From the NCBI GenBank assembly GCA_963796635.1, contig CAWCMH010000001.1:198296-262295 (forward strand): 64,000 bases of DNA, given 5' to 3'. The notes below the pieces were generated by a model that had not been told where the DNA came from, did not search any database, and worked only from the letters and a program-made list of their open reading frames with translations. The DNA is from an uncultured Gemmatimonadales bacterium (GTDB lineage Bacteria; Gemmatimonadota; Gemmatimonadetes; Gemmatimonadales; GWC2-71-9). A program made the translations under genes and the position numbers. This document shows positions 9,527-23,690 of the stretch, in pieces; positions within the stretch are counted from its first letter, which is position 1, and the number at the start of each line of letters is the position of its first letter.

Positions 9527-9773
9527 GCGAATTCTCCGTGGCGGAGACTGCGCGGTGCGGGCGTGCTGGTTCGATTGAGGTGGTAAGTATCGCGCGGGGT
9601 GGGGAGGGGCGCCAGCGGGGGCGGCAAGACACGATGGTTTGAAGGCGGGCTGACTGAGGGGCGGCTCGCATGTCCGTCGAATTAGCTAGACTTGTTGGTG
9701 TGCTGCCGGATTTATGCTGCGGGTGAGGCAGGTCCAATACACGTTAGCCAGACGGATTGAGGTGCCGAGCCAA

Positions 9774-10277
9774 ATGCGCGCGCGAGTGTTCATGCTCGTC
9801 AGTACCGTTCTCGCCGGCAGCGTTTCGGCCGGCGAGGGACAAGTCACCGGAAGCGGCGTTGCCGACACGGTCGCCGTTCATCATTTGCTCGGGTGCTACC
9901 GGCTGCAGATGCAGCCCGATGACTCCACGGAATCACAGACACATGCGTTCGACCAGTGGCCCGCACGCTTTCACCTGACGAGCGTGGCCCAAGGGACCCG
10001 AGGCCCAGGTTCGGGCCACTGCGCGCTGAACCGGATCCATGGGTCATGGCAGATGGGCGGTCAAGGTTCCTCGGCTCGTGGCGTCTGCTGGGGGCCGACA
10101 CGCTCCTGGTCGGTTGGACCGACGGTTACAGCACGTTCGGCCTCCACCTCGGCATGCACAGCGACACGCTGCGCGGAACCGGCGAACTGGGAAGCGACCT
10201 GGTCATCTACTCGGAATCCCCGCCCCGTATGCGATTCGTCGCCGCGAGAATTCCTTGCGACAGCGCCACGAATGGTC
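9774..10277 (+). pseudogene. First cassette ORF, apparently frameshifted and 3'-disrupted by IS481 copy A
   Basis: A signal-peptide-like N-terminus (MRARVFMLVSTVLAGSVSA) lies in frame 0. A protein-like C-terminal part (RFLGSWRLLGADTLLVGWTDGYSTFGLHLG...) lies in frame 2 (ORF 9956..10300). Removing the IS restores ...SATNGHAG + TAA inside the attC R'' box. Confidence 0.4.
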
Positions 10278-11593
10278 GGAGCAGTCGGGGACATCGGTAA
10301 CAGATAGACCGAGGACATAGGTAACACTTCTCAAGTTGGTTTCATGCACCGAGGAGGTGCGTGATGCCGTGGAGAGTGGAGACCCCTATGTCGCAGCGGC
10401 AGGATTTTGTCGAGGCGTTTGCGCGCGAGCACTGGCAGATGACGGAGCTCTGTGCGCGGTTCGGCATCAGTCGAAAGACCGGTCACAAATGGTGGCGGCG
10501 ATTCCAGGTCGAGGGCGCGGCGGGATTCGTAGAGCACTCGCGACGGCCGGTGACGAGCCCGACACTCTTGGATGGGGAGCTCGCGGCGCTGGTTGTGCGC
10601 ACGCGGCAGGCGCATCCGACGTGGGGTCCGCGCAAGCTGCTGGCCTATCTCGCACGGCGGCATCCGCGACGCGACCCATGGCCGGTCGCGAGTACGGTGG
10701 GCGCGCTGCTCAAGCGAGAAGGGCTGGTGCGCGCCCGCCGGCGGCGTCCTGCGCCCGGCCATCCCGGGCGACCGACCACCCCGATGGACGCGCCGAACGC
10801 GCTGTGGACCGTCGATTTCAAGGGACAGTTTCGCTTGGGCACCGGCGCGTACTGCTATCCACTCACCATCGTCGATGGCTACTCGCGCTATTTGCTGGCG
10901 TGTCACGGCTTGCCGTCGACGGCGAGTGTCGGTGCGCGGAGCGTCTTCGAGCGGATCTTCCGGACGTATGGTTTGCCGGATCGCATTCGCAGCGACAACG
11001 GCACCCCCTTTGCGACGTGCGCGCTGGGTCGACTCTCGGCGCTCAGTGTGTGGTGGCTGAAGCTGGGCATCACGCCGGAGCTCATTCAGCCTGCGCACCC
11101 CGAACAGAATGGGCGGCATGAACGGATGCATCGCACGCTGAAGGCGGAAGCGACGCGACCCGCGGCCCAGACGCCCCGTGGTCAGCAACGTCGCTTCGAT
11201 GCCTTTCAGCAGGACTACAACACGGAGCGGCCCCACGAGGCCCTCGGCCAGGAACCGCCGGCGCAGCACTACGTCGCCTCGCCACGCGCGTACCCACGGA
11301 CGATCCGGAGCCCAGAGTACCCGCGCCACTACGAGACCCGGTATGTCTCGACCAACGGCGGCATCCGTTGGCAGCATCGGTGGGTGAACGTGAGCCATGT
11401 CCTGGCGGAGGAGTACGTCGGACTCGATGAGGTCGCCGATGGCATCTGGTCGGTGTATTTCGGCGACCTCTTGCTGGGGCGGCTGGATGAGCGAGATTAT
11501 CGGATGCACGGCGCGCACAATCGGAACCGGATCTAACGCAGGTGTAACCGATGTCCTCGGTCCAACGTGTAACCCATGTCCTCAGTCTGTACC
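10278..11593 (+). mobile_element. IS481-family insertion sequence, copy A (1316 bp)
   Basis: The 1316-bp unit is present three times in the window. Imperfect terminal IRs are GGAGCAGTCGGGGACATCGG... and (reverse complement) GGTACAGACTGAGGACATGG..., each with two GAGGACAT-N-GGTWACAC-like boxes. 3-bp direct repeat GTC at 10275-10277 and 11594-11596. Confidence 0.9.
10361..11536 (+). CDS. IS481-family DDE transposase
   Basis: 391 aa. N-terminal HTH (ELCARFGISRKTGHKWWRRF). rve-type core (WTVDFKG...IVDGYSRY...IRSDNGTPF...HPEQNGRHERMHRTLK). The protein is identical in all three copies. Confidence 0.9.
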   Translation: MMPWRVETPMSQRQDFVEAFAREHWQMTELCARFGISRKTGHKWWRRFQVEGAAGFVEHSRRPVTSPTLLDGELAALVVRTRQAHPTWGPRKLLAYLARRHPRRDPWPVASTVGALLKREGLVRARRRRPAPGHPGRPTTPMDAPNALWTVDFKGQFRLGTGAYCYPLTIVDGYSRYLLACHGLPSTASVGARSVFERIFRTYGLPDRIRSDNGTPFATCALGRLSALSVWWLKLGITPELIQPAHPEQNGRHERMHRTLKAEATRPAAQTPRGQQRRFDAFQQDYNTERPHEALGQEPPAQHYVASPRAYPRTIRSPEYPRHYETRYVSTNGGIRWQHRWVNVSHVLAEEYVGLDEVADGIWSVYFGDLLLGRLDERDYRMHGAHNRNRI

Positions 11594-11601
11594 GTCACGC
11601 T

Positions 11602-11720
11602 GGCTAACCCGCGCTTGCTGCTGGCCGGGTGTAAGCGTGTCGGCGCAGCGCGAGGTAGATTTATCTAAGGACTGCGGCGGCCTCACCTGCCCTCGCAGCA
11701 GAAGCGCAGAGTCGTTAGGT
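11602..11720 (+). repeat. attC-like site 1 (119 bp)
   Basis: R'' GGCTAAC ... R' GTTAGGT. Arms GCGCTT-G-CTGCTG pair with CAGCAG-AAGCGC. IS481 copy A ends 8 nt upstream. Confidence 0.75.
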
Positions 11721-11742
11721 GCACGGACGAACCGAGGACCCG

Positions 11743-12144
11743 ATGACGCGCATCATCACGTTGCCGGCCCTGAAGTCGACGCTCCTGTTCATCATTCTCG
11801 ACCTTGTCGGTGTCGGGATCATCGGCGATGCAGTGGCCAAATGGCTTGGCTTCGACACATCCTTCTTGATGCCGGTCTCGGCGGGGATCTGCATTGGCGC
11901 CGGCTATGCAGCAACGCGGCGTGGTATGTGGGGGGCGACAGCCGGAAGCATGGTGACGAGTGTAGAGATGATCGCGTATCTTGTGACTGGCAATCGTACG
12001 TCGGATATCGTTCCGCAAGATCAAGCGGCGACTATCGCCGTGATGATTGTCTTTGCGGTGTCGCTCGCTGGCGCGACACTTGGCGCGATAGGCGGGTGGG
12101 TCGCGCACCATCGTGTCCGCGTCTCCGCGGCGACCGGCACCTAA
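11743..12144 (+). CDS. Cassette ORF: small multi-pass membrane protein
   Basis: ATG at 11743 lies 23 nt after the R' box. Four hydrophobic segments. The stop TAA (12142-12144) lies inside the next R'' box ACCTAAC. Confidence 0.6.
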   Translation: MTRIITLPALKSTLLFIILDLVGVGIIGDAVAKWLGFDTSFLMPVSAGICIGAGYAATRRGMWGATAGSMVTSVEMIAYLVTGNRTSDIVPQDQAATIAVMIVFAVSLAGATLGAIGGWVAHHRVRVSAATGT

Positions 12145-12228
12145 CTGGCGCTTGCTGCGGACGGCCGCGCAGCAATCGAGTAGCTTCGCTACGGTGCGCG
12201 GCCGCCGCAGAAGCGCCGAGCGTTATAT
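12139..12228 (+). repeat. attC-like site 2 (90 bp)
   Basis: R'' ACCTAAC ... R' GTTATAT. Arms GCGCTT-G-CTGCGG-A-CGGCCGCGC pair with GCGCGGCCG-CCGCAG-AAGCGC. Confidence 0.7.
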
Positions 12229-12248
12229 CGACTAGAACTCGGAGCCAG

Positions 12249-12905
12249 ATGCGAACCACGTTCCTCCTCGGCACTGCACTATTGGGCCTCTCCGGCCGCG
12301 CTGCCGGTCAGCAGTGCAAGCGCACCGCCACCTACGTGACGGCCTTTGTCCTCGATACGATCAGCATCGATCGCCAGTCGTACCAGGCAGACACCATCTC
12401 CGGCGCCCTGCTCGGCAAGGGCGGGCCGCAGCAGTGGAGCCTCATTCGCTATCGTGCGGTGATGGCCCCTGACGGTTTGGTGCGGACGCTGGCGTTATCG
12501 GTGTGGCCTCTCGCCGCCGATAGTGCACTCCCGCCGAGGCAGACGAGCGAGCTGACGTTCGGCCCTCAGACCGTCGTGGCGGTGGTCACCGATGCGCGGC
12601 GAGGCAGTCAGACCCAGGTGGACTCTGTCGCCCCTGGCACCATGCCGTACATGGACAATGCACCCTTCTTTACCGCTTCCATCGTCCGCCGCGGCATCGG
12701 CTTCAAAGCCGACTCGGTCGATATCCCCATGCTTTGGCTCTTCACCCGAGGCACCAAGGAAATCGTCACGATTGTGCGGAAAGGAGGCGACTCGCTCCTC
12801 CTGCGTACGCCGCGCATGCAACTCACTGCGAGAACCTCTGGTGGGCAGCTACTCAGCTCGTGGCGCAACGACAGCGTGGCGATCACACGGTCGGCCTGCA
12901 ACTGA
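12249..12905 (+). CDS. Cassette ORF: secreted hypothetical protein
   Basis: Internal ATG at 12249 of the artefactually long ORF 11397..12905. Signal peptide MRTTFLLGTALLGLSGRAAGQ. Ends 8 nt before the attC. Confidence 0.6.
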   Translation: MRTTFLLGTALLGLSGRAAGQQCKRTATYVTAFVLDTISIDRQSYQADTISGALLGKGGPQQWSLIRYRAVMAPDGLVRTLALSVWPLAADSALPPRQTSELTFGPQTVVAVVTDARRGSQTQVDSVAPGTMPYMDNAPFFTASIVRRGIGFKADSVDIPMLWLFTRGTKEIVTIVRKGGDSLLLRTPRMQLTARTSGGQLLSSWRNDSVAITRSACN

Positions 12906-12913
12906 GTGGGGCG

Positions 12914-13036
12914 GTATAACAAGCGCTTGCTGCTGGCCGGGTGTGCGCGTGGCAGCGCGGCGCGAGGTATGATTTGTTGCTAGGGACTGCGCCGCGCCGC
13001 CACACACCCGGCAGCAGAAGCGCAGGGTCGTTAGAG
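12914..13036 (+). repeat. attC-like site 3 (123 bp)
   Basis: R'' GTATAAC ... R' GTTAGAG. Arms GCGCTT-G-CTGCTG-G-CCGGGTGTG pair with CACACACCCGG-CAGCAG-AAGCGC. Close relative of site 1. Confidence 0.75.
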
Positions 13037-13113
13037 CGACTCCGCCCAACGTGGCGCCCGACCTGCAAGCGAGCATTTCTGCTCCGTAGGACGCCCTGCT
13101 GGGTCGAGGTAAA

Positions 13114-13410
13114 TTGCACGCCATGAGCCCGTCCATCGAGGAAATCCGGGGGAAAGTGGCGGCGCCGATGCGTCGGCACGGCGTCGTACACGCGAGTGTA
13201 TTCGGCTCCGTCGCCCGTGGCGACGCTGGCGCCGGGAGTGACGTGGATTTTCTTGTGGAATTTGAGCGCGGGCGAAGCCTCCTCGATCTCGCCGGTCTCC
13301 GGTCCGACTTGATCGCAGCGCTCGGCCGGGGCGTCGATATCGCCACATCCAATTCGTTGCATCCTCGGCTCCGCGATCGCATCCTGGCGGAGCTCGTGCC
13401 GCTGCTATGA
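13114..13410 (+). CDS. Cassette ORF: nucleotidyltransferase (MNT-type antitoxin)
   Basis: 98 aa. Motif VFGSVARGDAGAGSDVDFLVEF (GS...DxD minimal NTase). ATGA overlap with the downstream DUF86 gene. Confidence 0.8.
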   Translation: MHAMSPSIEEIRGKVAAPMRRHGVVHASVFGSVARGDAGAGSDVDFLVEFERGRSLLDLAGLRSDLIAALGRGVDIATSNSLHPRLRDRILAELVPLL

Positions 13411-13769
13411 GCCGCGGCGTGGCCCTCCTGCTCGGTGAAGTGCTCGAGGCGATTCGCCTCGTGGAGCAATACACGGACGGCCTGTCGTTCGCGGCGTTCT
13501 CGACGAGCATCGAAAAACAGGACGCGGTTGTTCGGCGGCTTGCCGTGATCGGCGAGGCGGTGAAGGGAGTGCCGGAGGAGTTTCGCGCTCGTTATCCCGA
13601 GATTCCGTGGCGTGATATTGCCGGCGCGCGGGACATTCTGATTCACGAATACTTCCGTATCGATCTTGAGCTCGCTTGGGAAATGGCGCGCAGCGACTTG
13701 CCGGCGCTCGCCGCGCGCATCCGCGCCGTAATGCAGGCGGAAGCGTTCGATGAACACGGGGCGCTCTAA
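13407..13769 (+). CDS. Cassette ORF: HEPN/DUF86 (HepT-type toxin)
   Basis: 120 aa. RDILIHEY fits the Rx4HxY HEPN RNase motif. The stop TAA (13767-13769) lies inside R'' CTCTAAC. Confidence 0.8.
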   Translation: MSRGVALLLGEVLEAIRLVEQYTDGLSFAAFSTSIEKQDAVVRRLAVIGEAVKGVPEEFRARYPEIPWRDIAGARDILIHEYFRIDLELAWEMARSDLPALAARIRAVMQAEAFDEHGAL

Positions 13770-13854
13770 CAAGCGCTTGCTGCGGGCGGCCGCGCTGATG
13801 ATGTTGCGCCTTCGGCGCGGACGCGGCCGCCGCAGAAGCGCAGAGTCGTTAGGT
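13764..13854 (+). repeat. attC-like site 4 (91 bp)
   Basis: R'' CTCTAAC ... R' GTTAGGT. Arms GCGCTT-G-CTGCGG-G-CGGCCGCG pair with CGCGGCCG-CCGCAG-AAGCGC, leaving two single-G bulges on the R''/L'' arm. Confidence 0.8.
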
Positions 13855-13903
13855 GGCAAGGGTCGGGATTCCGCGACCGTCCATCAACTGAGAGATCACT
13901 TCT

Positions 13904-14189
13904 ATGGTGCCTGAATCCATACAGCCGATCTATGTCACGGTAATGGGATGGCTGGCGCTTACCTGCGGTATCATCTTGGTCGTTCGGGCGGGAACTCGCT
14001 GGCAGGCCCTGATCGATAAGCCGGCGTTGCGGGTCCAGGAAGCGATCAATGGGGCCAATAGCACGATTATCGGCATCACAGTTGTTGTGCCTGGGTTGCC
14101 ATCGCCCCTACGGATGTTCCTCTTCCTCCTGGTCATCGGAATGAGCGCGACCAGTCTGCTCGTTCGTCGTGCCGCGAACCGTGCGGCCC
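13904..14189 (+). pseudogene. Cassette ORF (small membrane protein) 3'-disrupted by IS481 copy B
   Basis: Two hydrophobic helices. The present tail SSRGHR* is encoded by the IS end. Removing the IS restores ...AANRAARAA + TAA inside R'' GCCTAAC. Confidence 0.6.
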
Positions 14190-15505
14190 GGAGCAGTCGG
14201 GGACATCGGTAACAGATAGACCGAGGACATAGGTAACACTTCTCAAGTTGGTTTCATGCACCGAGGAGGTGCGTGATGCCGTGGAGAGTGGAGACCCCTA
14301 TGTCGCAGCGGCAGGATTTTGTCGAGGCGTTTGCGCGCGAGCACTGGCAGATGACGGAGCTCTGTGCGCGGTTCGGCATCAGTCGAAAGACCGGTCACAA
14401 ATGGTGGCGGCGATTCCAGGTCGAGGGCGCGGCGGGATTCGTAGAGCACTCGCGACGGCCGGTGACGAGCCCGACACTCTTGGATGGGGAGCTCGCGGCG
14501 CTGGTTGTGCGCACGCGGCAGGCGCATCCGACGTGGGGTCCGCGCAAGCTGCTGGCCTATCTCGCACGGCGGCATCCGCGACGCGACCCATGGCCGGTCG
14601 CGAGTACGGTGGGCGCGCTGCTCAAGCGAGAAGGGCTGGTGCGCGCCCGCCGGCGGCGTCCTGCGCCCGGCCATCCCGGGCGACCGACCACCCCGATGGA
14701 CGCGCCGAACGCGCTGTGGACCGTCGATTTCAAGGGACAGTTTCGCTTGGGCACCGGCGCGTACTGCTATCCACTCACCATCGTCGATGGCTACTCGCGC
14801 TATTTGCTGGCGTGTCACGGCTTGCCGTCGACGGCGAGTGTCGGTGCGCGGAGCGTCTTCGAGCGGATCTTCCGGACGTATGGTTTGCCGGATCGCATTC
14901 GCAGCGACAACGGCACCCCCTTTGCGACGTGCGCGCTGGGTCGACTCTCGGCGCTCAGTGTGTGGTGGCTGAAGCTGGGCATCACGCCGGAGCTCATTCA
15001 GCCTGCGCACCCCGAACAGAATGGGCGGCATGAACGGATGCATCGCACGCTGAAGGCGGAAGCGACGCGACCCGCGGCCCAGACGCCCCGTGGTCAGCAA
15101 CGTCGCTTCGATGCCTTTCAGCAGGACTACAACACGGAGCGGCCCCACGAGGCCCTCGGCCAGGAACCGCCGGCGCAGCACTACGTCGCCTCGCCACGCG
15201 CGTACCCACGGACGATCCGGAGCCCAGAGTACCCGCGCCACTACGAGACCCGGTATGTCTCGACCAACGGCGGCATCCGTTGGCAGCATCGGTGGGTGAA
15301 CGTGAGCCATGTCCTGGCGGAGGAGTACGTCGGACTCGATGAGGTCGCCGATGGCATCTGGTCGGTGTATTTCGGCGACCTCTTGCTGGGGCGGCTGGAT
15401 GAGCGAGATTATCGGATGCACGGCGCGCACAATCGGAACCGGATCTAACGCAGGTGTAACCGATGTCCTCGGTCCAACGTGTAACCCATGTCCTCAGTCT
15501 GTACC
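14190..15505 (+). mobile_element. IS481-family insertion sequence, copy B (1316 bp)
   Basis: Identical to copy A throughout the compared ends and transposase. 3-bp direct repeat CCC at 14187-14189 and 15506-15508. Ends 8 nt upstream of R'' GCCTAAC. Confidence 0.9.
14273..15448 (+). CDS. IS481-family DDE transposase
   Basis: 391-aa product identical to that of 10361..11536. Confidence 0.9.
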   Translation: MMPWRVETPMSQRQDFVEAFAREHWQMTELCARFGISRKTGHKWWRRFQVEGAAGFVEHSRRPVTSPTLLDGELAALVVRTRQAHPTWGPRKLLAYLARRHPRRDPWPVASTVGALLKREGLVRARRRRPAPGHPGRPTTPMDAPNALWTVDFKGQFRLGTGAYCYPLTIVDGYSRYLLACHGLPSTASVGARSVFERIFRTYGLPDRIRSDNGTPFATCALGRLSALSVWWLKLGITPELIQPAHPEQNGRHERMHRTLKAEATRPAAQTPRGQQRRFDAFQQDYNTERPHEALGQEPPAQHYVASPRAYPRTIRSPEYPRHYETRYVSTNGGIRWQHRWVNVSHVLAEEYVGLDEVADGIWSVYFGDLLLGRLDERDYRMHGAHNRNRI

Positions 15506-15513
15506 CCCGGGCT

Positions 15514-15630
15514 GCCTAACACGCGCTTGCTGCGGTCGAGGTCAAGCGGTTCGGCCGCCGCGATGTAGTCTTTATGTAAGGACTGCGGCGGCCTCACCTG
15601 GCCTCGCGGCAGAAGCGCACGCCGTTAGGC
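15514..15630 (+). repeat. attC-like site 5 (117 bp)
   Basis: R'' GCCTAAC ... R' GTTAGGC. The left arm GCGCTTGCTGCGG and right arm GCGGCAGAAGCGC match the family consensus. The central part is similar to site 1. Confidence 0.75.
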
Positions 15631-15679
15631 GGCGATGAACAACCGGTCAGGCCGGAACAGTCATCAGGAGTCCGACGGC

Positions 15680-16678
15680 ATGCATACCCTGTCTTTCGCA
15701 CTAACGGTCTTGCTCACCCCGCTGGGATCTCCTGCTCCGACCTGCGTCGGCGCGCCTCACGGACGCGAAGTGCCTGCGGACTTCGTCGCTGATATTCTGT
15801 TCGCTCGCTGGCATCTGAATAACGGTCAGACGCTTCGATTCTATCTCGACACCGGTGGTCCGGTCATTCTGTTTCCGGAGGCGGTGCCTCGGCTCGGCGT
15901 TGACCCTCGGTTGATTGTCAGCGCCCGAGACACAGTGCGTGGTGTGTACGTTCCCGGCACGATCGGTGATACGACCTTTCCGCTGCCGCTCATGATGCTC
16001 CACCCGAATCCAACGTCCTCCGACACCAGCCCCGTCCGCGTCATACCGTCGCGGCGTCAGGACGACCCCCGGTTGCGGGTCGATGGTGGGCTCGGCGCCT
16101 ACTGGTTCGCCGGCCGAGTGTGGACGATCGACTACCCGCACCGCCGCCTGTATTTCGACGGTTCCGATCCGGCCGAGCCTTCGACAATGCGATGCTGGGT
16201 ACCACTGGGGTTTCAGGTTGACTCGGCTGGGCAGCGGATGACGCAGTTTCCGCGGATCACGGCGAGCGTCGCCGGCGAATCCCTCGATTTTCTTGTCGAC
16301 ACCGGGGCATGGGTGACGCTCACCGATAGCGCGTGGCGCGTTATCGGCACAGGCGAGCCGCGCCATCGAGCTGCGAGCTTTATCGACAAGTCGGTCTTCG
16401 ATCGGTGGCACGCTCAGCATCCGAATTGGCAGGTAGTTCGCAATGCCGCCGCGTTCAATGGCTTCATGGACATGATTGAGGTGCCCAGGGTGGAGGTGGG
16501 AGGCCAGCACGTCGGGCCGGTATGGTTTGCCGCGCAGCCCACGTTTCACCAGTTCATGGCGCAGTATATGGACAAGCCTGTCGACGGCGCGCTTGGCGGA
16601 TCAGCGTGGAAGTACGTCACACTTGTGCTCGATTATCCGCGCGCCCGAGCAGCCGTGCTGACTGGAACGTCGCACTGA
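15680..16678 (+). CDS. Cassette ORF: secreted retropepsin/pepsin-like aspartic protease (two DTG motifs)
   Basis: AGGAG lies 10 nt upstream of the ATG at 15680. Signal-like N-terminus. Two Asp-Thr-Gly motifs (FYLDTGGPV and FLVDTGAWV). An alternative start at 15635 lies 4 nt after R'. Confidence 0.6.
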   Translation: MHTLSFALTVLLTPLGSPAPTCVGAPHGREVPADFVADILFARWHLNNGQTLRFYLDTGGPVILFPEAVPRLGVDPRLIVSARDTVRGVYVPGTIGDTTFPLPLMMLHPNPTSSDTSPVRVIPSRRQDDPRLRVDGGLGAYWFAGRVWTIDYPHRRLYFDGSDPAEPSTMRCWVPLGFQVDSAGQRMTQFPRITASVAGESLDFLVDTGAWVTLTDSAWRVIGTGEPRHRAASFIDKSVFDRWHAQHPNWQVVRNAAAFNGFMDMIEVPRVEVGGQHVGPVWFAAQPTFHQFMAQYMDKPVDGALGGSAWKYVTLVLDYPRARAAVLTGTSH

Positions 16679-16682
16679 GCCT

Positions 16683-16774
16683 GCCTAACCCCGCGCTTGC
16701 TGCGGCCGGCTGCGCAGGTGATGTTGCGCCTTCGGCGCTGACGCGGCCGCCGCAGAAGTGCAGAGTCGTTAGCC
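16683..16774 (+). repeat. attC-like site 6 (92 bp)
   Basis: R'' GCCTAAC ... R' GTTAGCC. The central GGTGATGTTGCGCCTTCGG loop is shared with site 4 and the half-site at 20352. Confidence 0.75.
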
Positions 16775-16824
16775 AGACAGCACGCCCTTCTTCGTGATCG
16801 CCTCTCCAAACCCTAGATTAATGA

Positions 16825-17060
16825 ATGCCGACGGTCCTGCGCTCCGGTCCCTACCGGTTCTTCTTCTACTCCGGAGACCGCGACGAACCGGCGCATGTAC
16901 ATTCGCGCGGGATGACTGCTACGCGAAGTTCTGGCTGGCGCCAGTGCGACTTGACGACGGCGGTGGGTTCAGCCGCAAAGAACTGGGCGCCGTCGAAGCT
17001 CTGATCAGCGAGCACGCCGCTGCGCTCCGGGAGGCCTGGAATGACTACTTCCCCGATTGA
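16825..17060 (+). pseudogene. Cassette ORF: DUF4160-family gene with apparent frameshift
   Basis: From ATG 16825 the frame reads MPTVLRSGPYRFFFYSGDRDEPAHVH, then loses frame. The rest (RDDCYAKFWLAPVRL...REAWNDYF) continues in the frame of ORF 16794..17060. Confidence 0.55.
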
Positions 17061-17358
17061 TCTCAAATTGGCCCTGGCGCAGAGCGTCACGGTCACGGAC
17101 GACGCGCTGATCGTCGAACTCGTCGATGGCCGCACACTGTCGGTGCCCGTGGCGTGGTATCCTCGGCTGGCGCACGGTGCGCCGGCGGAACGGGCGAAAT
17201 GGGAGTTCATCGGCCGCGGCCATGGGATCCATTGGCCGGCGCTCGATGAGGATATCAGCGTCGAGGATCTGCTTGCCGGACGACGCTCCGGCGAGAGCCA
17301 CGCGTCGCTGCAGCGATGGCTGGTCGCCCGGAAGCTGAGCAACCGGGGAAATGGTTGA
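17041..17358 (+). CDS. Cassette ORF: DUF2442-family protein (C-terminal tail replaced by IS-derived codons)
   Basis: 105 aa. Pattern DDALIVELVDGRTLSVPVAWYPRLAHG...WEFIGRGHGIHWPALDEDISVEDLL. The last ~7 codons derive from the mini-IS. Removing the IS restores ...ARKLRAT + TAA in R'' ACCTAAC. Confidence 0.7.
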   Translation: MTTSPIDLKLALAQSVTVTDDALIVELVDGRTLSVPVAWYPRLAHGAPAERAKWEFIGRGHGIHWPALDEDISVEDLLAGRRSGESHASLQRWLVARKLSNRGNG

Positions 17359-17749
17359 CACCGTAACCCGGGTACATGGTTGCCTGGAGCAGTTTCTTCG
17401 GCCCCCACAGGGGATGCTGGCGCCGCGTCGTGCAGAGCAACGCGGCGATTGCATCGGGAATGCGATGCGGACAGTGATGCGGGGCGCGGCTCCGATCGGC
17501 GAGCGCCGCCCGTCCGCCTTCCGCCGCCCGATCGAGCCACTTGTAGCCGGACTTTCGGCTGATGCCGTACCGCGCACACAGCTCAGTCATCGAGTAGCGT
17601 CCAGCGCGGACGTCGGCGATGAAGCGTTCTCGTTGTTCCACGGGTGCAGTCTCCAACCACGGCATGGCGAACCTCCGGAAGGTCCGCCAGGGTAGCCGTG
17701 TCAACCATGTTGCCGGTATACTCTGTCAACTATCTACCCGGTTTGTACC
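17336..17749 (-). mobile_element. Internally deleted derivative (~414 bp) of a second, related IS481-family element
   Basis: Retains both IR-like ends: window-left TGAGCAACCGGGGAAATGGTTGACAC...ACATGGTTGCC and right (reverse complement) GGTACAAACCGGGTAGATAGTTGACAG...ACATGGTTGACAC. Retains about 110 N-terminal transposase codons (MPWLETAPVEQRERFIADV...ELCARYGISRKSGYKWL...HPLWGPKKLLQ), homologous but not identical to the full-length copies. Ends 8 nt before R'' ACCTAAC. End positions are accurate to about 2 nt. Confidence 0.7.
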
Positions 17750-17757
17750 TGCGCGCC

Positions 17758-17841
17758 ACCTAACAGGTATCTGCTCCTGGCCGCGCGCGCCATGTCGCGG
17801 CTCCGCCGCACGCGCGGCAGCAGAAACACAATGCGTTCGGC
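17758..17841 (+). repeat. attC-like site 7 (84 bp)
   Basis: R'' ACCTAAC ... R' GTTCGGC. The left arm CTGCTCCTGGCCGCGCG pairs with CGCGCGGCAGCAG. Confidence 0.6.
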
Positions 17842-17876
17842 GTCCCCGAACATTCCCGCTTCGCGAGGTGTCTGCA

Positions 17877-18275
17877 ATGCGACTCACGCGCATCCTCTTG
17901 CTTGGCGGCCTCGGCGTCGTGGCCTATGATGTCGTCGCGTCGATGCTTGCCCGCGGCTTTGCGCTCACCTACGGGCGCTTTGCCATCGGCTCCTACGCGA
18001 TTTATCTCCTGACGGGTTATCTCGCCGCCCGCCGCGCACCGTTCTGGCATGGACCGCTGGCCGGCGCCGCAGTGGCCGCCGTCGAGGCCGGGCTGGGCTG
18101 GCCGCTCTCGGCCCAACTCGGGCCCGCGGACTCCGCGGCGGTGTATGCCTCGGCGCCCGCGGCTGCCCGCATAGGAATGGTCGTCCTTCTAGCGGCCGTC
18201 GGGGCCGCCTTGGGCCTCGTCGGCGCGGGCCTCGCTCAGATTGGCCGGGCGAGGCTCAGCCCAACGGACGCCTAA
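17877..18275 (+). CDS. Cassette ORF: small multi-pass membrane protein
   Basis: Internal ATG at 17877 of ORF 17619..18275 (MRLTRILLLGGLGVVAYDVV...). Four hydrophobic segments. The stop TAA lies inside GCCTAAT. Confidence 0.6.
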   Translation: MRLTRILLLGGLGVVAYDVVASMLARGFALTYGRFAIGSYAIYLLTGYLAARRAPFWHGPLAGAAVAAVEAGLGWPLSAQLGPADSAAVYASAPAAARIGMVVLLAAVGAALGLVGAGLAQIGRARLSPTDA

Positions 18276-18365
18276 TCACTGCATGCAGTAGAAAGGACAG
18301 CCCGGCTACTCCGCATTTCCTGAGATATGATCAGCTGCCCTGCAGCTGATGCGACCGCATTAGGC
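18270..18365 (+). repeat. attC-like site 8 (96 bp), variant boxes GCCTAAT ... ATTAGGC
   Basis: The terminal boxes are perfectly complementary, but both carry the paired change C>T / G>A at the conserved AAC/GTT position. The arm sequence differs from the main family. Confidence 0.5.
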
Positions 18366-18395
18366 AGCAATACCTGTCTCACGATGGCGGTGTGA

Positions 18396-18812
18396 ATGGT
18401 ACACGGCTCGCGATGGATCGCTCTTGTTGTGCTCGGGCTGCCCTGGGCACCACGCGCGGCAGCGCAGACCTCCCCTGACACGAGCCAGCGCGTTCGGGTC
18501 GAGTGCGGGGGCGCGGGCGTGACGGGAACAGACCGGGTTCAACCGCCCCAACGAACCGCCGCGAGCTTCCGCCGGGTAACGATGCCACCGGTTCCACGGG
18601 CGCTTCAGGACTCATTCTTTGTTGCTCAGTTCCATGTGACACCTCGCGGTACCGTTGATACCGTGATACTGAACGGTCTCGCTGATTCGTCGTTCGCGCG
18701 CCGGATGCGGCGCGACCTCATGGATGCGAGCTTCAAACCGGCAACCGTCGGTGGATGTCCGGTGGCCGCGTGGCTGAGCCTCGACGTGACCTTGAGGCGT
18801 GGCCGGCCGTGA
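18396..18812 (+). CDS. Cassette ORF: secreted TonB C-terminal-domain-like protein
   Basis: Signal peptide (IALVVLGLPWAPRAAAQ). The C-terminal ~80 aa pattern FFVAQFHVTPRGTVDTVILNGLADSSFARRMRRDLMDASFKPATVGGCPV resembles TonB_C. Confidence 0.55.
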   Translation: MVHGSRWIALVVLGLPWAPRAAAQTSPDTSQRVRVECGGAGVTGTDRVQPPQRTAASFRRVTMPPVPRALQDSFFVAQFHVTPRGTVDTVILNGLADSSFARRMRRDLMDASFKPATVGGCPVAAWLSLDVTLRRGRP

Positions 18813-18832
18813 ATCGAACGATCTGGATTGCT

Positions 18833-18895
18833 GCCTGACACGCGCGTGGTGCCGGCGAGGCCAGGGCGGTTCGGCAGAAGCGCCGGCCGTGAGGC
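18833..18895 (+). repeat. attC-like site 9 (63 bp)
   Basis: R'' GCCTGAC ... R' GTGAGGC. Arms GCGCGTGGTGCCG / CGGCAGAAGCGC match the family consensus. Confidence 0.55.
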
Positions 18896-18946
18896 GCCAG
18901 CTCGCAACTTCCTACCGAGGGGGCCTTCATTTCGCGGCGGTCCGGC

Positions 18947-19453
18947 ATGTGGAAGTTCACGGTTCTGACGGGAGTGTGGACGTTCGCGGTCGCGTACGCC
19001 GTGTGGTTTGGCATTCGCGTGTGGACGGACGCCGGGGTGATGATGTACGCCGGGCACTCGCTATCGTTGATCATGTGGGGTGTTCCGCTCCTCCCGGTGC
19101 TGCTGATGACGTGGTGGTTGCTATGGCGATGGACCGGTGCGCGCCAACGGGTTCCACCCATCTTTTTCTGCGGCTGGGTGGCGTTGATCGTGATTCCGGG
19201 ACCGCCGTTGCCGATGACGCACAGCATTCCCGCACATGGTGAAACGATCACCACCGTTGCTCCGATCTTCTGGGTCATGATGGGGTTGGTGAGCGTTGGG
19301 CCAGTCGCTTTGACAATCGCGATGTGGTATTCGACAATTCAGGCCCGACGCTTCGCAGGCCGCCACACCCCCGGCCGCAGAAGCGCAGCGTCGTTGGGCA
19401 GACGGCGAGGCGGCTCCTGGGCAAGGTGGCTTGATGCTCTACATGGTCGTTGA
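18947..19453 (+). CDS. Cassette ORF: multi-pass membrane protein reading through its attC
   Basis: 168 aa with Trp-rich hydrophobic helices. There is no stop before or in the attC: the R'' box is GCCCGAC, so the in-frame codon is CGA where other cassettes have TAA. The ORF runs on to 19453. Confidence 0.55.
   Translation: MWKFTVLTGVWTFAVAYAVWFGIRVWTDAGVMMYAGHSLSLIMWGVPLLPVLLMTWWLLWRWTGARQRVPPIFFCGWVALIVIPGPPLPMTHSIPAHGETITTVAPIFWVMMGLVSVGPVALTIAMWYSTIQARRFAGRHTPGRRSAASLGRRRGGSWARWLDALHGR
19343..19399 (+). repeat. attC-like site 10 (57 bp)
   Basis: R'' GCCCGAC ... R' GTTGGGC. The right arm GGCCGCAGAAGCGCAGCGTC matches the family consensus. Confidence 0.6.
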
Positions 19454-19703
19454 GAATTTTCGAGGGGACCCCAAGGCCGTGTACCGTCGCTTCCGGGACC
19501 GAGGTCGGCTGGCGCCGGAAGGCCTCCGTTATGTGAACAGCTGGGTGACCGAGGACCTGCAGCGCTGCTACCAGATAATGGAGTGCGCGGACCTCGCCCT
19601 TCTTGAGGAATGGATGGGTCGCTGGAAGGACCTCGTTGAATTCGAGGTCCTTCCCGTCATGACCTCGCCGGAGGCCGCTGACCTCATCGGTCCTCGGCTA
19701 TGA
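19434..19703 (+). CDS. Cassette ORF: DUF3303-family protein
   Basis: MLYMVVENFRGDPKAVYRRFRDRGRLAPEGLRYVNSWV...CYQIMECADLALLEEWMGRWKDLVEFEVLPVMTS matches the DUF3303 pattern as I remember it. Confidence 0.65.
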   Translation: MLYMVVENFRGDPKAVYRRFRDRGRLAPEGLRYVNSWVTEDLQRCYQIMECADLALLEEWMGRWKDLVEFEVLPVMTSPEAADLIGPRL

Positions 19704-19791
19704 TGCTGCCCAGCATCGCATTGCCGCGGATGATCGCCGTTCCTCGCTTCGCCCGGTCGGGCGCTCACCGCTGAACGCCACGACGTTAGGC
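19696..19791 (+). repeat. attC-like site 11 (degenerate left box)
   Basis: Good R' GTTAGGC (19785-19791). The left box is GGCTATG with weak arm pairing. A tight hairpin GATGCTG-CC-CAGCATC lies at 19700-19715. Confidence 0.35.
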
Positions 19792-20046
19792 GGCCGGATC
19801 CGGTGGCCGATCCTGAAGGAAAGCACTGGCCGCCACGCTGGTGCTGATCGCGTACCGCGTGAACGACGGTCCACCATGTGCGCTGCCATTCCAGCGCGCT
19901 ACACTCCACGCGGAGCACGATGACCTCATCCCAGACCAACCGCAGCGAGCGCGGCCCCCGCGTGGCAATCGCGGTCCTGCCTCGGTCCGCAGAGTCAAGG
20001 GCGCGCCCGCGCAGTGACGCGATGACGACCCAAGCTGGGGACGCGG

Positions 20047-20333: not shown

Positions 20334-20351
20334 GCCGCGCGTGACCGAGAG

Positions 20352-20416
20352 GCTGAGCAGGTGATGTTGCGCCTTCGGTACGAGCGCGGCCGCCGCAGAT
20401 GCGCAGGACGTTAGAG
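20352..20416 (+). repeat. attC half-site (centre + right arm only)
   Basis: GGCTGAGCAGGTGATGTTGCGCCTTCGG...GCGGCCGCCGCAGATGCGCAGGAC-GTTAGAG matches the centre and right arm of sites 4 and 6. There is no matching left arm or R''. Confidence 0.55.
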
Positions 20417-20446
20417 CGACTCACGACAACTCCTGTCGAGGACTGC

Positions 20447-20680: not shown

Positions 20681-20708
20681 CATGCGGCCGGCTCGAGCGG
20701 GCAGGGCG

Positions 20709-20740
20709 CTCTAACCCGCGCTTGCTGCGGGCGGCCGTGC
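20709..20740 (+). repeat. attC half-site (R'' + left arm only)
   Basis: CTCTAAC-CC-GCGCTTGCTGCGGGCGGCCG matches the family left arm. No convincing right arm follows; a lone GTTGGGC at 20833 has poor pairing. Confidence 0.5.
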
Positions 20741-20877
20741 ACGGACCAAGAAAAGATGGTTCTCAAGATCAACGGGTGGAGATCCGACGACCGTCCGCTT
20801 TCCGGCGGTGCGTTTGCATCCGACGATCCTCCGTTGGGCGATAGACCTACGCTTCCCCAAGTGTAAAGGAGATCACC

Positions 20878-21384
20878 ATGCCTGTTCGCAAGACAGACAA
20901 AGTCCCGAAGCCGGCACTCCGGAAAACGGCCAAGCGCACCGCGGCACGACGTAACGCCGACACGACGCTACCGGACACCATGATTACCGGCAAGGCAAGT
21001 CCCCGGAAGGCGGCGGACGGCGACAAGCCGGTCTTCGCCTACATCGCCAGCTTGCCGCAGCCGCAGCGCGGCATCGCCGACAGAATCGATGCCCTGGCGG
21101 CAGCGACGCTGCCAAACCTGCAGCGATCCGTGAAGTGGGGCATGTCGTACTATGGCGTCGGCGACGGCTGGTGCTTCTGCTGCGGCGGCTTTGCGAAACA
21201 CGTCAAGCTCATGTTCATCAACGGCGTGACGCTCACGCCGGTACCGCCAGTGACGCCCGTGGCGATGGGCAAGTCTACGCGCGGCGTGGAACTCGAATCC
21301 GTGGACGACCTTGACGAACGCCAGATCGCGGCGTGGATGAAACAAGTCGCGGCCGTGCCAGGCGTCGGGAAGAAAAAGCGATAG
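20878..21384 (+). CDS. DUF1801 (YdhG-like) domain protein
   Basis: Strong RBS AAAGGAGA upstream of the ATG. The C-terminal ~110 aa (FAYIASLPQPQRGIADRIDAL...VKWGMSYYGVGDGWCFCCGGFAKHVKLMF) fit DUF1801. Confidence 0.65.
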   Translation: MPVRKTDKVPKPALRKTAKRTAARRNADTTLPDTMITGKASPRKAADGDKPVFAYIASLPQPQRGIADRIDALAAATLPNLQRSVKWGMSYYGVGDGWCFCCGGFAKHVKLMFINGVTLTPVPPVTPVAMGKSTRGVELESVDDLDERQIAAWMKQVAAVPGVGKKKR

Positions 21385-21914
21385 GCCGGACGTCGCCCGC
21401 GAATGCCACGGCGACGGGGAAGTGCGCGTCCCGACCTCGGCGCCGTCACTCGCCGGCCCTCGCTCAAGAGCCATCCCTCGAACGCCTCACCGGCACCGGC
21501 GAGCTGGACTGTCGCCGAGCTCTTCGCGTAGATGATACAGAGTATTCAGGAGCGCCCGACGGGCCGCGACTGATCGAAATGGGCGTGCAGCCCGAGTAAT
21601 CGAAGCTCGATCGTGCGATTCGAGTGCAGGGGTCGGGTAGTCGCCCAGCAACAAACGGCAACGCGACGGCTGGCAAACAGACGCCTGATATGTTGGCGCG
21701 ACATCGAGCTCGCAGCCATCGATTCTTTGAACGCGCACCGACAACGCCGAGGGAACCACAATGCGCCGCGCCTGCAACGGGCAACACCTGCAAGCCGAGG
21801 CCGACTTGTGGAGCTTCATTCTCTGGCAGACTGGCGATCCAGACTTCCAGCCAAAGCATTGAAAAGCCAGCGACAATTCCGAACCACGGACATCTTCCAG
21901 AAAGCGGTGCTCTT

Positions 21915-22460
21915 ATGAAACACGTTATTCGCAGCAGCGACCTGGTTCGCGCCTCCCTGCTGGCATTCGCCTGCGCTGTCATCACCGGTTGCGGCGTGCA
22001 CCGTGCCGGCGCAACCACGACCGGCGATCAGTCGCCGTGTGTCATCACGGTGACCGGGGCCAAGACCGGGACCTTCCCCTGCTCCACCCTGATGGCGGTC
22101 TATGGGGTCAAGGACGGCAAGTCGCAGCTGGGAATCAATTCGAACGACAGCGAGCACTATGTCACGATCGGGATCAAGTTCCCCGGGATGCCCACCACGA
22201 AGACGTACAAGAGCTCCGACGCCGGGGCGGCAGAGGGAATCTGGGTCGGCAACGGCAGCGCGATGTGGGTCGCGCAGGGAAACACCGAACCCCACGCCGT
22301 CGGGAGCTACGTCGTGACGCTGACCAGCGTGAAGGAAATCCCCTACGCCACCGACGTGAAGGGCTACGAGATCCACGGAACGGCGACCGCCACGCTGCTC
22401 CCCGACCCCGATACCGACACCGCCGCCAAGGGCAGCATCACGTTGACCGCGCGATTCTAA
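21915..22460 (+). CDS. Lipoprotein, hypothetical
   Basis: Internal ATG at 21915 of ORF 21624..22460. Lipobox LAFACAVITGCG. The stop TAA (22458-22460) lies inside TTCTAAC. Confidence 0.6.
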   Translation: MKHVIRSSDLVRASLLAFACAVITGCGVHRAGATTTGDQSPCVITVTGAKTGTFPCSTLMAVYGVKDGKSQLGINSNDSEHYVTIGIKFPGMPTTKTYKSSDAGAAEGIWVGNGSAMWVAQGNTEPHAVGSYVVTLTSVKEIPYATDVKGYEIHGTATATLLPDPDTDTAAKGSITLTARF

Positions 22461-22569
22461 CGGGAGGACCATGATGCGTTTCGCGCGATCGCCCGGCGCC
22501 TGGGTCGTGGCCGCAGCCATCGCAGGTCGCTCTCTGACCCAGCCGCCGCAGATGCGCAGAGCGGTAGAC
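22455..22569 (+). repeat. attC-like site (degenerate), R' GGTAGAC
   Basis: R''-like TTCTAAC. The right arm AGCCGCCGCAGATGCGCAGAGC matches the family consensus. R' has T>G (GGTAGAC). The left arm is degenerate. Confidence 0.45.
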
Positions 22570-22605
22570 CTCCACGTCGCGTACCCGCTCCGATGCAGGA
22601 TATGC

Positions 22606-22640
22606 TTGCAGAGATCGGTGGTATGATGTATTATCATACC
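22606..22640 (+). promoter_or_regulatory. Sigma70-like promoter with overlapping operator palindrome for the RHH-MazF cassette
   Basis: -35 TTGCAG (22606-22611), 17-nt spacer, -10 TATTAT (22629-22634). Perfect 8-bp inverted repeat GGTATGAT...ATCATACC (22620-22640) overlaps the -10. Confidence 0.55.
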
Positions 22641-22652
22641 CCGGAGGGCGCC

Positions 22653-22895
22653 ATGCCGAAGACCAAGATTGCCGTCACGCTGGACGGTCCGATGTTGCAC
22701 CGTCTCGACCGCGTGATTGACGGCGGACTCTTTCCCAATCGTAGTCAGGCGATCGAAGCCGCCGTGATGGAGAAGCTGGAGCGGCTGGAGCATCGTCGTC
22801 TGGCCGTCGAGTGCGCCAAACTCGATCCGGCGGCGGAGCAGGCCCTGGCTGACGAAGGACTCCACGATGACATGGCGGCATGGCCCGCATACTGA
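22653..22895 (+). CDS. Ribbon-helix-helix (CopG/MazE-like) antitoxin
   Basis: MPKTKIAVTLDGPMLHRLDRVIDGGLFPNRSQAIEAAV is an RHH N-terminus. GGAGGG RBS. Overlaps the toxin gene by 16 nt. Confidence 0.75.
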   Translation: MPKTKIAVTLDGPMLHRLDRVIDGGLFPNRSQAIEAAVMEKLERLEHRRLAVECAKLDPAAEQALADEGLHDDMAAWPAY

Positions 22896-23218
22896 GAGGC
22901 GAAGTCCGCTGGGCCAATCTGGATCCGACCCGCGGTCGCGAACAGGCGGGTCTGCGGCCGGTGTTGATCGTCAGCCAGGATGTGTTCAACGATCGGTCGG
23001 GCACCGTGATTGCGATGGCGTTGACGAGTCAGCGACAACGCGCCGGCTTTCCCCTCACCCTTGAACTCAAGTCCGCGTCGCTCCCGAAGCTGTCGTGGGT
23101 GAAGATCAGTCAGATTCGCACGCTGTCGGTGGAACGCATCGGGAAGCGGTTGGCAAAGGTGTCCGCGGAGGAACTGGCCGTCGTGATCGAAGGTCTCAAC
23201 GAGATCATTGGGGTGTAG
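22880..23218 (+). CDS. mazF: PemK/MazF-family endoribonuclease toxin
   Basis: 112 aa. RGEVRWANLDPTRGREQAGLRPVLIVSQDVFNDRSGTVIAMALTS...LPKLSWVKISQIRTLSVERI is a typical MazF/PemK pattern. Confidence 0.85.
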   Translation: MARILRGEVRWANLDPTRGREQAGLRPVLIVSQDVFNDRSGTVIAMALTSQRQRAGFPLTLELKSASLPKLSWVKISQIRTLSVERIGKRLAKVSAEELAVVIEGLNEIIGV

Positions 23219-23255
23219 CCCGCGCTGGCTGCGGCAGGCGCGGCCACCGCATCCG
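23213..23255 (+). repeat. Degenerate attC remnant
   Basis: GTGTAGC-CC-GCGCTGGCTGCGGCAGGCGCGGCC resembles the family left arm (xxCTAAC-CC-GCGCTTGCTGCGGGCGGCC). The mazF stop TAG occupies the TAA position. No R' is present. Confidence 0.3.
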
Positions 23256-23273
23256 AATCCGGAAGGGATCGTC

Positions 23274-23657
23274 ATGGCGATGCGCACCACGGTACCAGAG
23301 AACATCGACGAATACATCGCGGCCTCTCCCCCGGCCGTGCGGCCGATCCTCACGCGGATCCGACAGACCATCCGCGCCGCCGCACCCGAGGCGCAAGAAC
23401 TCATCAGCTATCGTATGCCCGCATTCCGGCTGCAGGGGATCGTGGTGTACTTCGCCGCCTTCAAGGCGCACATCGGTGTCTACCCGCCGGTATCAGGAGA
23501 TGCCCGCCTGGCGAAGGCGCTCGCGCCCTATGCCGGGCCCAAAGGCAATCTCCGGTTCCCGCTCGATCAGCCGATCCCCTATGATCTGATCAAGCGAATC
23601 GTGGTCCTCAGGGTACGGCAGAACCGCGCTCGGGCCGCGGCGAGCGGAACGAACTGA
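23274..23657 (+). CDS. DUF1801 (YdhG-like) domain protein
   Basis: Internal ATG at 23274 (MAMRTTVPENIDEYIAASPPAVRPILTRIRQTIRAAAPEAQELISYRMPAF...YFAAFKAHIGVYP). Second DUF1801 paralogue in the array. Confidence 0.7.
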   Translation: MAMRTTVPENIDEYIAASPPAVRPILTRIRQTIRAAAPEAQELISYRMPAFRLQGIVVYFAAFKAHIGVYPPVSGDARLAKALAPYAGPKGNLRFPLDQPIPYDLIKRIVVLRVRQNRARAAASGTN

Positions 23658-23666
23658 TAGAGGGCC

Positions 23667-23690
23667 CGCCTACCACGCGCCTGCGGGCGG
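23667..23690 (+). repeat. Terminal attC half-site (left arm only) marking the right edge of the array
   Basis: GCCTACC-AC-GCGCCTGCGGGCGGCC compares with the consensus GCCTAAC-AC-GCGCTTGCTGCGGGCGGCC. No right arm follows. Confidence 0.35.

Follow-up and report, generated by a model that had tools for sequence, protein, structure and literature searches.

A probable integron cassette array without an adjoining integrase gene in an uncultured Gemmatimonadales bacterium

Clusters of attC sites that have no integron integrase beside them (CALINs) are defined by two or more same-strand attC sites within 4 kb with no gene for an integron integrase close by, and they are common (Cury et al. 2016, PMC4889954; Néron et al. 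2022, PMC9024848). About half of CALINs sit in genomes that encode IntI (Cury et al., PMC4889954). Their proposed origins are loss of intI, rearrangement and off-target insertion of cassettes (PMC8618304), and the last of these routes is also put forward in PMC4889954 and in bioRxiv 10.1101/2022.09.11.507474. Gemmatimonadota are listed among the integron-bearing phyla (PMC8618304). Here we analysed a stretch of 64,000 nucleotides (nt) from an uncultured Gemmatimonadales bacterium (assembly GCA_963796635.1, contig CAWCMH010000001.1, positions 198,296 to 262,295 of the forward strand), hereafter called the window, with a G+C content of 64%; all positions below are counted from its first letter. 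Judged by best matches only, the DNA probably belongs to a Gemmatimonadales chromosome.

We consider, with a probability of roughly 0.88, that positions 9743 to about 23,700 of the window are a chromosomal integron cassette array whose integron-integrase gene no longer lies alongside, i.e. a CALIN. The array is a further example of an element type already known, since CALINs have been defined and found to be common (PMC4889954, PMC9024848), and the label fits because no integrase was detected in the window: the array holds ten attC sites supported by a covariance model, all gaps between them are below 4 kb, and the 64 kb yielded no integrase. Its units are co-oriented open reading frames (ORFs) or toxin-antitoxin (TA) pairs, each with an attC site, and some of these cassettes recur, bounded by attC, in the related loci L030, L102 and L024. 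The attC reading of the repeats is supported on four independent lines, namely sites elsewhere that were found by an inner motif and carry R boxes, arrays of such sites beside integrases recognised by TIGR02249, the scores of the covariance model, and three recurring cassettes. A preliminary description of this DNA had proposed both the attC identity of the repeats and a CALIN-like label, and both were supported.

The attC sites and their relatives

The sites number six strong, four weak and about six remnants, a tally compatible with the 11 or more reported in the preliminary description. The six strong sites, A to F, are given here with bit scores and E-values from the covariance model described below (R1) and with fold stabilities as z against shuffled sequences.

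11602-11720 (+), attC A, 119 nt, GGCTAAC...GTTAGGT; 67.2 bits, E 1.9e-21
12139-12228 (+), attC B, 90 nt, ACCTAAC...GTTATAT; 66.9 bits; z -4.7
12914-13036 (+), attC C, 123 nt, GTATAAC...GTTAGAG; 62.8 bits; z -8.1
13764-13854 (+), attC D, 91 nt, CTCTAAC...GTTAGGT; 67.4 bits; z -4.7
15514-15630 (+), attC E, 117 nt, GCCTAAC...GTTAGGC; top score, 89.4 bits, E 1.7e-29; z -4.6
16683-16774 (+), attC F, 92 nt, GCCTAAC...GTTAGCC; 57.8 bits

Read on the + strand, these six sites are built alike: xxCTAAC is followed by 2-3 nt, GCGCTT, a G that bulges out, CTGCNG, a second bulged base (N), a stem-loop that varies, CNGCAG, AAGCGC, 5-6 nt and GTTAGxx. When folded as single-stranded DNA, A to F each formed a long hairpin whose R''/L'' arm carries two bulges of one base, the first at 8 nt from R'' and the two 6 bp apart. 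The hairpins of B to E were more stable than 200 of 200 shuffled sequences (z -4.6 to -8.1), and those of A and F were weaker (z -1.5 and -1.7). The folding recovered the two bulges noted in the preliminary description, and the unequal spacers that it had noticed beside the R boxes measured 2-3 and 5-6 nt. Its boxes of the form RYYYAAC...GTTRRRY stood in part: CTAAC/GTTAG, the conserved core, is present in A to F, but the full 7-mers are found on both sides at site E alone, a failure of the strict consensus that reflects its loose outer positions and not missing sites. The attC of the window span 63-123 nt and those of the relatives 90-120 nt, where attC in general vary over 57-141 nt, and several cassette ORFs stop at a TAA within R''. 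When the 64 kb were searched for the half-site motifs GCGCTTGCTGCGG and CCGCAGAAGCGCAG, allowing at most 1-2 mismatches, matches lay on the + strand between 11.6 and 23.3 kb, with the sole exception of one 1-mismatch match on the minus strand at 19940. The repeat family as a whole is far beyond chance. In a search of Rfam at the gathering threshold, tRNA was the only hit, and no family matched the sites.

Downstream of about 17.7 kb the sites decay. Bit scores fall to 36-20 for G, H, I and K, mutations are present in some of their R' triplets, and the hairpins of H, I and K lack stability (z about -1.2 to +0.3).

17758-17841 (+), attC G, degenerate, R' GTTCGGC; 35.8 bits, E 4e-10
18270-18365 (+), attC H, divergent, GCCTAAT...ATTAGGC, GTT triplet lost (ATT); 22.9 bits, E 2e-5; z -1.2
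18833-18895 (+), attC I, 63 nt, degenerate, GCCTGAC...GTGAGGC (GTG); 28.9 bits; no fold stability
19342-19399 (+), remnant J, L' half intact, R' GTTGGGC; not scored by R1
19708-19791 (+), attC K, weak, R' GTTAGGC; 20.3 bits, E 1.9e-4; no fold stability
20362-20416 (+), remnant L, loop and right half only (...CCGCAGATGCGCAGGACGTTAGAG), the loop sequence common to D and F
20709-20741 (+), remnant M, left half only (CTCTAACCCGCGCTTGCTGCGGGCGGCC)
22546-22570 (+), remnant N, right half (CCGCAGATGCGCAGAGCGGTAGAC), GTT changed to GGT; 10 bits, not significant
23218-23243 (+), remnant O, left-half-like (CCCGCGCTGGCTGCGGCAGGCGCGGC)
23668-23695 (+), remnant P, left-half-like (GCCTACCACGCGCCTGCGGGCGGCC), the array end, beyond which R1 finds nothing

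The repeats are present where they had been reported, with the corrections that the distal half of the array is decayed and that insertion sequence (IS) elements interrupt it.

In order to look for the same sites in other genomes, the inner motif GCGCTTGCTGC-N48-78-GCAGAAGCGC, with no R boxes required, was scanned over 185,579 species genomes. About one third of the matches were chance matches in unrelated phyla, and the remainder came mostly from metagenome-assembled genomes of Gemmatimonadales/Gemmatimonadota. We obtained 78 unique sites in which xxCTAAC precedes the motif by exactly 2 nt and GTTAGxx follows it after 5-6 nt, neither of which the pattern had asked for; GCCTAAC occurred in 39 and GTTAGGC in 31 of them. 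Their R box is 88% paired, with the invariance of AAC/GTT imposed by the extraction filter, and the invariance of the first extrahelical G in their alignment is in part a product of the pattern used for the scan. Outside the fixed motif, the stem of this alignment had compensatory changes: 125 cells were changed on both sides, compared with 46 +/- 4 after shuffling (0/500), and 93% of stem cells were paired, compared with 27-46% when the partner was slid. Seven stem pairs were changed on both sides, and the covariation score was 0.164 versus 0.062 for shuffled alignments (0/500). Stem mismatches that would give a G:T wobble numbered 22 on the bottom strand and 8 on the top strand, an excess that is at most suggestive of a bottom-strand substrate.

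The covariance model R1 was built solely from these 78 sites, none of them from the window, and the window was scored with filters off, the E-values being rough. Ten window sites scored at E<1e-3 (89-20 bits), all on the + strand inside the array, and the only other matches in the 64 kb to pass this threshold were lower-scoring ones on the opposite strand, at six palindromic sites already counted. A further match at 61231-61332 (-), with 16.6 bits and E 0.004, was rejected as chance; it lies inside a long + strand ORF that also gave an antisense IntI match. Applied to plasmid class 1 integrons, R1 found the attC of blaVIM-2 (E 9e-7), aadA2 (3e-5) and aac(6')-29a (0.003) and, more weakly, that of aadB (0.024), each at the 3' end of its gene and on the gene's strand, with no other match better than E 0.1. 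In aadA2 and VIM-2 the two bulges of R1 coincided with the canonical extrahelical positions (8 nt from R'', then 6 bp).

The relatives also carry integrases. Homologues of IntI1 with 50-55% identity were found by tblastn in L030, L060, L068, L075 and L096, and partial, truncated or decayed intI copies in L035, L063 and L090. Four full-length homologues pass the NCBIfam model TIGR02249 'integron integrase' (404-446 bits, cut-off 265) and carry the IntI-specific segment ALPxALxRKYPxAxxxWxWQWVFP. R1 maps 1-7 same-strand attC beside the relatives' integrases, and up to 12 in loci without an integrase. We further observed that intI looks frameshifted or decayed in L030 and L063 and truncated in L090.

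Three cassettes of the window recur in related loci. The MNT/HepT cassette has a homologue between two attC in L102 (76% and 68% amino acid (aa) identity), the RHH/MazF pair has one directly behind an attC in L024 (82% and 88% aa), and the aspartyl-protease cassette (15631-16774) is 89% identical in nucleotides and 86% in amino acids to the first cassette past intI in L030, a homology that stops at the R' box of attC F.

To judge from characterised integrons, each cassette would consist of one promoterless ORF or TA pair followed by its attC. The bottom strand of attC would fold to a hairpin in which the R box (CTAAC/GTTAG) is paired, the spacer is unpaired and asymmetric, and the R''/L'' arm bears two extrahelical bases; IntI would bind this hairpin and cut at the AAC of R', and could then release cassettes (attC x attC) and insert them again at attI. 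The six proximal attC are intact and could still recombine if IntI were supplied in trans, and the distal cassettes would now be immobile, fixed in place because their attC have decayed.

The upstream junction and the integrase gene

The region upstream of the first cassette bears on how the array lost, or came to lack, its integrase. No tyrosine recombinase was detected in the 64 kb when IntI1 (a query 100% identical to annotated IntI1), XerD and six IntI from Gemmatimonadota were searched against it by tblastn, which extends to the whole window the earlier statement that no such ORF lies at the upstream end. With the same queries, intI was absent within 9.7 kb upstream and 40 kb downstream of the array. 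A match of the L060 IntI at 61736-61906 (-), E 7e-4, was set aside as chance, lying in an Arg/Pro-rich low-complexity antisense frame of a long + strand ORF. A minus-strand ORF of 384 aa at 8583-9737, where the preliminary description had expected intI, has no Pfam match and is an unlikely frame, and the minus-strand gene at 8120-9526, described there as DUF1036-like, does match DUF1036 but weakly. The expectation of a divergent, minus-strand intI is not in agreement with the relatives, in which eight of nine intI-bearing loci (L030, L035, L060, L063, L068, L075, L090 and L096) have intI upstream of and co-oriented with the cassettes, L056 being divergent. A complete integron consists of intI with its IntI-specific domain, attI and cassettes; of intI and attI, the window has an attI-like junction only.

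9728-9749 (+), attI-like junction, GCAGGTCCAATACACGTTAGCC; the GTTAGCC core at 9743-9749 is the start of cassette 1

The lone GTTAGCC ahead of the first cassette, already pointed out in the preliminary description, is present and looks like an attI remnant. The sequence GCAGGTCCAATACACGTTAGCC matches the attI junction of L060, GCAGGTCCAATACGCGTTGGGC, which lies about 70 nt past the intI stop, and 0 of 300 dinucleotide shuffles reached this score; in the relatives a GTTRRRY core lies 55-75 nt past the intI stop. By eye, the window shares a looser pattern, GCAG.T..A.TA...GTT.G, with L068, L075 and L090, for which the pairwise alignments are not significant (16-85 of 300 shuffles). A candidate intI remnant at 9527-9671 (145 nt) was rejected because its similarity to the 3' ends of intI from six relatives was indistinguishable from that of shuffles. 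We suggest that the locus most likely began as a complete integron with intI directly upstream and co-oriented, as in most relatives, and from the L060-like junction we infer that intI was then deleted here and the attI junction left behind.

Several points weigh against this interpretation of the array. The attI similarity is significant versus one relative, and no intI remnant is detectable upstream of the junction. The intI gene may exist elsewhere in the source genome, beyond the 64-kb window. Hairpins are significantly more stable than shuffles in just 4 of the 10 sites, the unpaired spacer is 2-3 versus 5-6 nt where about 5 versus 6 is canonical, and the first bulged base is a top-strand G (bottom-strand C) where the canonical base is a bottom-strand G. 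Finally, the training set of R1 was recruited with a motif derived from the window, which limits the independence of the model to the R boxes, the spacing and the outer stem.

Among other explanations, it is possible, though we hold it with some doubt, that the array is part of a working integron whose intI was carried beyond the window, to a distance of more than 10 kb, by an IS-mediated rearrangement and still acts on A to F. This account is compatible with a CALIN at this locus and differs only in that intI survives elsewhere. Sites A to F retain all key features, the window is rich in IS elements (three IS481-family copies, an IS3-like element, IS110 and further rve transposases), and the frequency of CALINs in IntI-encoding genomes (PMC4889954) agrees with it; in contrast, no intI lies within the distances searched around the array, and the upstream junction carries no IS. 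It is unlikely that the array never had an integrase of its own and that an IntI encoded elsewhere inserted cassettes at a secondary non-att site, where they accumulated. Such off-target insertion is already proposed for CALINs (PMC4889954, PMC8618304), and the want of a detectable upstream remnant of intI is in its favour. However, the junction 5' of the first cassette resembles the real attI of a related integron (0/300 shuffles), the same attC family adjoins intI in the relatives, and the roughly 16 co-oriented units, intact proximally and decayed distally, are as expected for growth at attI. That the palindromes are generic repetitive extragenic palindromic (REP) or bacterial interspersed mosaic element (BIME)-like repeats, or terminator-like ones, unrelated to integrons, is very improbable: GC-rich imperfect palindromes right behind ORFs are frequent for REPs and terminators, but these stand in one orientation in one 14-kb block of the 64 kb (bar one stray minus-strand half-site), not dispersed in both orientations as REP/BIME elements are, carry CTAAC/GTTAG boxes at fixed spacing and no T-run behind the hairpins, and form arrays in the relatives, in some beside integron integrases, while a model from 78 related sites finds class 1 attC.

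The locus documents a sedentary integron array without its integrase in a soil phylum with few integron descriptions, and it is a useful case for studying the origin of CALINs because the gradient from intact proximal to decayed distal sites is clear and an attI-like junction has been kept. In addition, the comparative data define a widespread Gemmatimonadales attC family tied to mostly co-oriented integrases, which could improve attC models and the taxon assignment of soil gene cassettes.

Cassettes, IS elements and flanking regions

The cargo of the array is as follows.

9744-11714 (+), cassette 1, ORF frameshifted-looking (its N-terminal part starting at ATG 9774, its C-terminal part sharing the frame of 9956-10277), with IS copy 1 inside
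11743-12144 (+), cassette 2 ORF, small membrane protein, stop TAA within R'' ACCTAAC; no Pfam match
12249-12905 (+), cassette 3 ORF, 218 aa, signal-peptide-like N-terminus; no Pfam match
13114-13769 (+), cassette 4, MNT (nucleotidyltransferase)/HepT TA pair; Pfam NTP_transf_2 3.8e-13, HepT-like 3e-28
13904-14189 (+), cassette 5 ORF, small membrane protein, 3' end cut by IS copy 2
15635-16678 (+), cassette 6 ORF, 347 aa, aspartyl-protease-like; Pfam Asp_protease_2 2.1e-6
16794-17358 (+), cassette 7, DUF4160/DUF2442 gene pair (Pfam)
17877-18275 (+), cassette 8 ORF, membrane protein, stop within GCCTAAT
18396-18812 (+), cassette 9 ORF, 138 aa, secreted-like; no Pfam match
18947-19453 (+), cassette 10 ORF, membrane protein, reads through remnant J
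19431-19703 (+), cassette 11 ORF, DUF3303; Pfam 3.6e-29
20878-21384 (+), DUF1801 ORF; Pfam 1.4e-13
22593-23218 (+), RHH antitoxin/MazF toxin pair; Pfam PemK_toxin 6.6e-29, RHH_1
23208-23657 (+), second DUF1801 ORF, the last cassette-like unit; Pfam 1.2e-12

Three TA-like pairs, DUF1801 and DUF3303 had been named as cargo before, and Pfam agrees, giving MNT/HepT, DUF4160/DUF2442, RHH/MazF, DUF3303 and two DUF1801 genes. The three TA modules would probably stabilise the array. In cassette 1, the ORF at 9774-10277 seems to switch frame between an N-terminus that resembles a signal peptide and a C-terminus that looks protein-like, which is either a frameshifted pseudogene or a sequencing error; after excision of the IS it would end at the TAA in R'' GGCTAAC.

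The array also contains two full IS elements and one truncated, which the preliminary description had overlooked.

10278-11594 (+), IS481-family copy 1, 1317 bp, transposase 10361-11536 (391 aa); 3-bp target duplication GTC
14190-15506 (+), IS481-family copy 2, 1317 bp, 100% identical to copy 1; target duplication CCC
51274-52590 (-), IS481-family copy 3, 99.9% identical, outside the array; target duplication AGA
about 17380-17747 (-), truncated IS481-like element, helix-turn-helix (HTH)/leucine-zipper part only; Pfam HTH_32/HTH_28/LZ_Tnp_IS481 on ORF 17255-17704 (-)

The transposase scored 231.7 bits with NCBIfam NF033577 (cut-off 224) and matched Pfam rve/HTH_32/LZ_Tnp_IS481. The right end of each copy lies 9-10 nt 5' of a CTAAC, the distance being 10 nt for copy 1 and the CTAAC of attC A and likewise for copy 2 and attC E, and for the terminus of the truncated element, ...GGTTTGTACC, the distance 5' of the attC G CTAAC is again 10 nt. 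The array copies truncate the last codons of cassette ORFs, and the same IS/attC junction was found in L045 and L063. In a metagenome scan with the 25-nt right end of the IS (junction loci L125-L244), 110 unique flanks were recovered, of which 29 had YTAAC at offset 9-11, where chance predicts fewer than 1; at least 20 of these 29 junctions run into complete attC of several sequence families. Among further flanks of the terminus there are clusters at REP-like palindromes, at a second sequence that recurs and at tRNA 3' ends, and sister lineages with the same IS terminus appear to target such other structured repeats (REP-like palindromes, tRNA 3' ends).

We tentatively propose, at somewhat less than even odds, that the element standing twice in the array and its truncated relative belong to an IS481-family lineage of DDE insertion sequences which recognises attC and inserts at a fixed distance, 9-10 nt 5' of the R'' CTAAC, with a 3-bp duplication. 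In our literature search, no paper linking IS481 elements with attC targeting was found. IS481-family elements, inserting just 5' of the R'' boxes, have since invaded the array, and as their insertions leave attC intact they could both cripple cassettes and supply repeats for rearrangements that make CALINs. If real, the proposed lineage would be a second and mechanistically different class of attC-targeting IS besides IS1111-attC; if confirmed, an attC-homing IS481 element would carry more weight, because it points to another route by which cassette arrays are disrupted or rearranged. Cassettes 2-5 (about 2.6 kb, within 10278-15506) are bracketed by identical direct repeats of the IS, and could act in the manner of a composite transposon or be deleted by homologous recombination.

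Outside the array, an HTH plus nucleotidyltransferase (MNT-like) ORF overlaps a 140-aa ORF at 7040-8096 (+), just upstream and on the cassette strand, with no attC alongside; this TA-like pair may be a very old cassette or be unrelated. Downstream of a tRNA gene (36156-36229, -), an IS-rich zone (36156-56800) may be a genomic island, and at about 38-41.5 kb and 44-48 kb few ORFs have the high third-position G+C typical of the genome.

36765-37874 and 55690-56799 (-), IS3-like element, two copies
41580-42740 (-), IS110-family transposase
43114-43908 and 54698-55717, further rve transposases

Comparison with known systems

Mobile elements known to target attC are the IS1111-attC group (IS110 family) and the group IIC-attC introns. 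Like these, the IS of the array keeps a constant position with respect to attC across many independent contexts. In contrast to them, it has an IS481-family DDE transposase, makes 3-bp target duplications and inserts 6-7 nt 5' of the 7-nt R'' box, leaving attC intact, and not inside attC.

The Vibrio cholerae superintegron has a species-specific family of attC, the Vibrio cholerae repeats (VCR), many hypothetical cassettes, and TA cassettes that are thought to be stabilising. The array resembles it in its highly similar attC family, its hypothetical cassettes and its interspersed TA cassettes, whereas it is much shorter, GC-rich, partly decayed and without an integrase, and its attC belong to a different sequence family. 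Sedentary chromosomal integrons with an 'inverted' integrase, of the Treponema type, were reportedly grouped together by Boucher in 2007. The likeness here lies in the place of the IntI homologue, which is upstream of the cassettes and shares their strand in 8 of the 9 related loci from Gemmatimonadota, and in long arrays with one homogeneous attC family; the window itself has no intI, however, and the relative L056 is divergent.

With the attC of class 1 integrons (59-base elements; aadA2, blaVIM-2), the window sites share R'' xxCTAAC, R' GTTAGxx, 8 nt from R'' to the bulge, 6 bp between bulges, a variable terminal stem and cassette ORFs that frequently stop within R''. They differ in pairing 6/8 nt past the R''-proximal spacer (GCGCTT/AAGCGC), in a spacer of 2-3 versus 5-6 nt, and in a first bulge that is a top-strand G where class 1 has C.

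The array compares with the CALINs (PMC4889954; Néron et al. 2022, PMC9024848), which likewise have at least 2 co-oriented attC spaced by under 4 kb, lack intI within 4-10 kb, have cassettes mostly of unknown function and IS nearby, and are plausibly degraded integrons. Neither of these two papers discusses its phylum, Gemmatimonadota; compared with the CALINs described there, the array is larger than the average of about 5-6 attC and keeps an attI-like junction.

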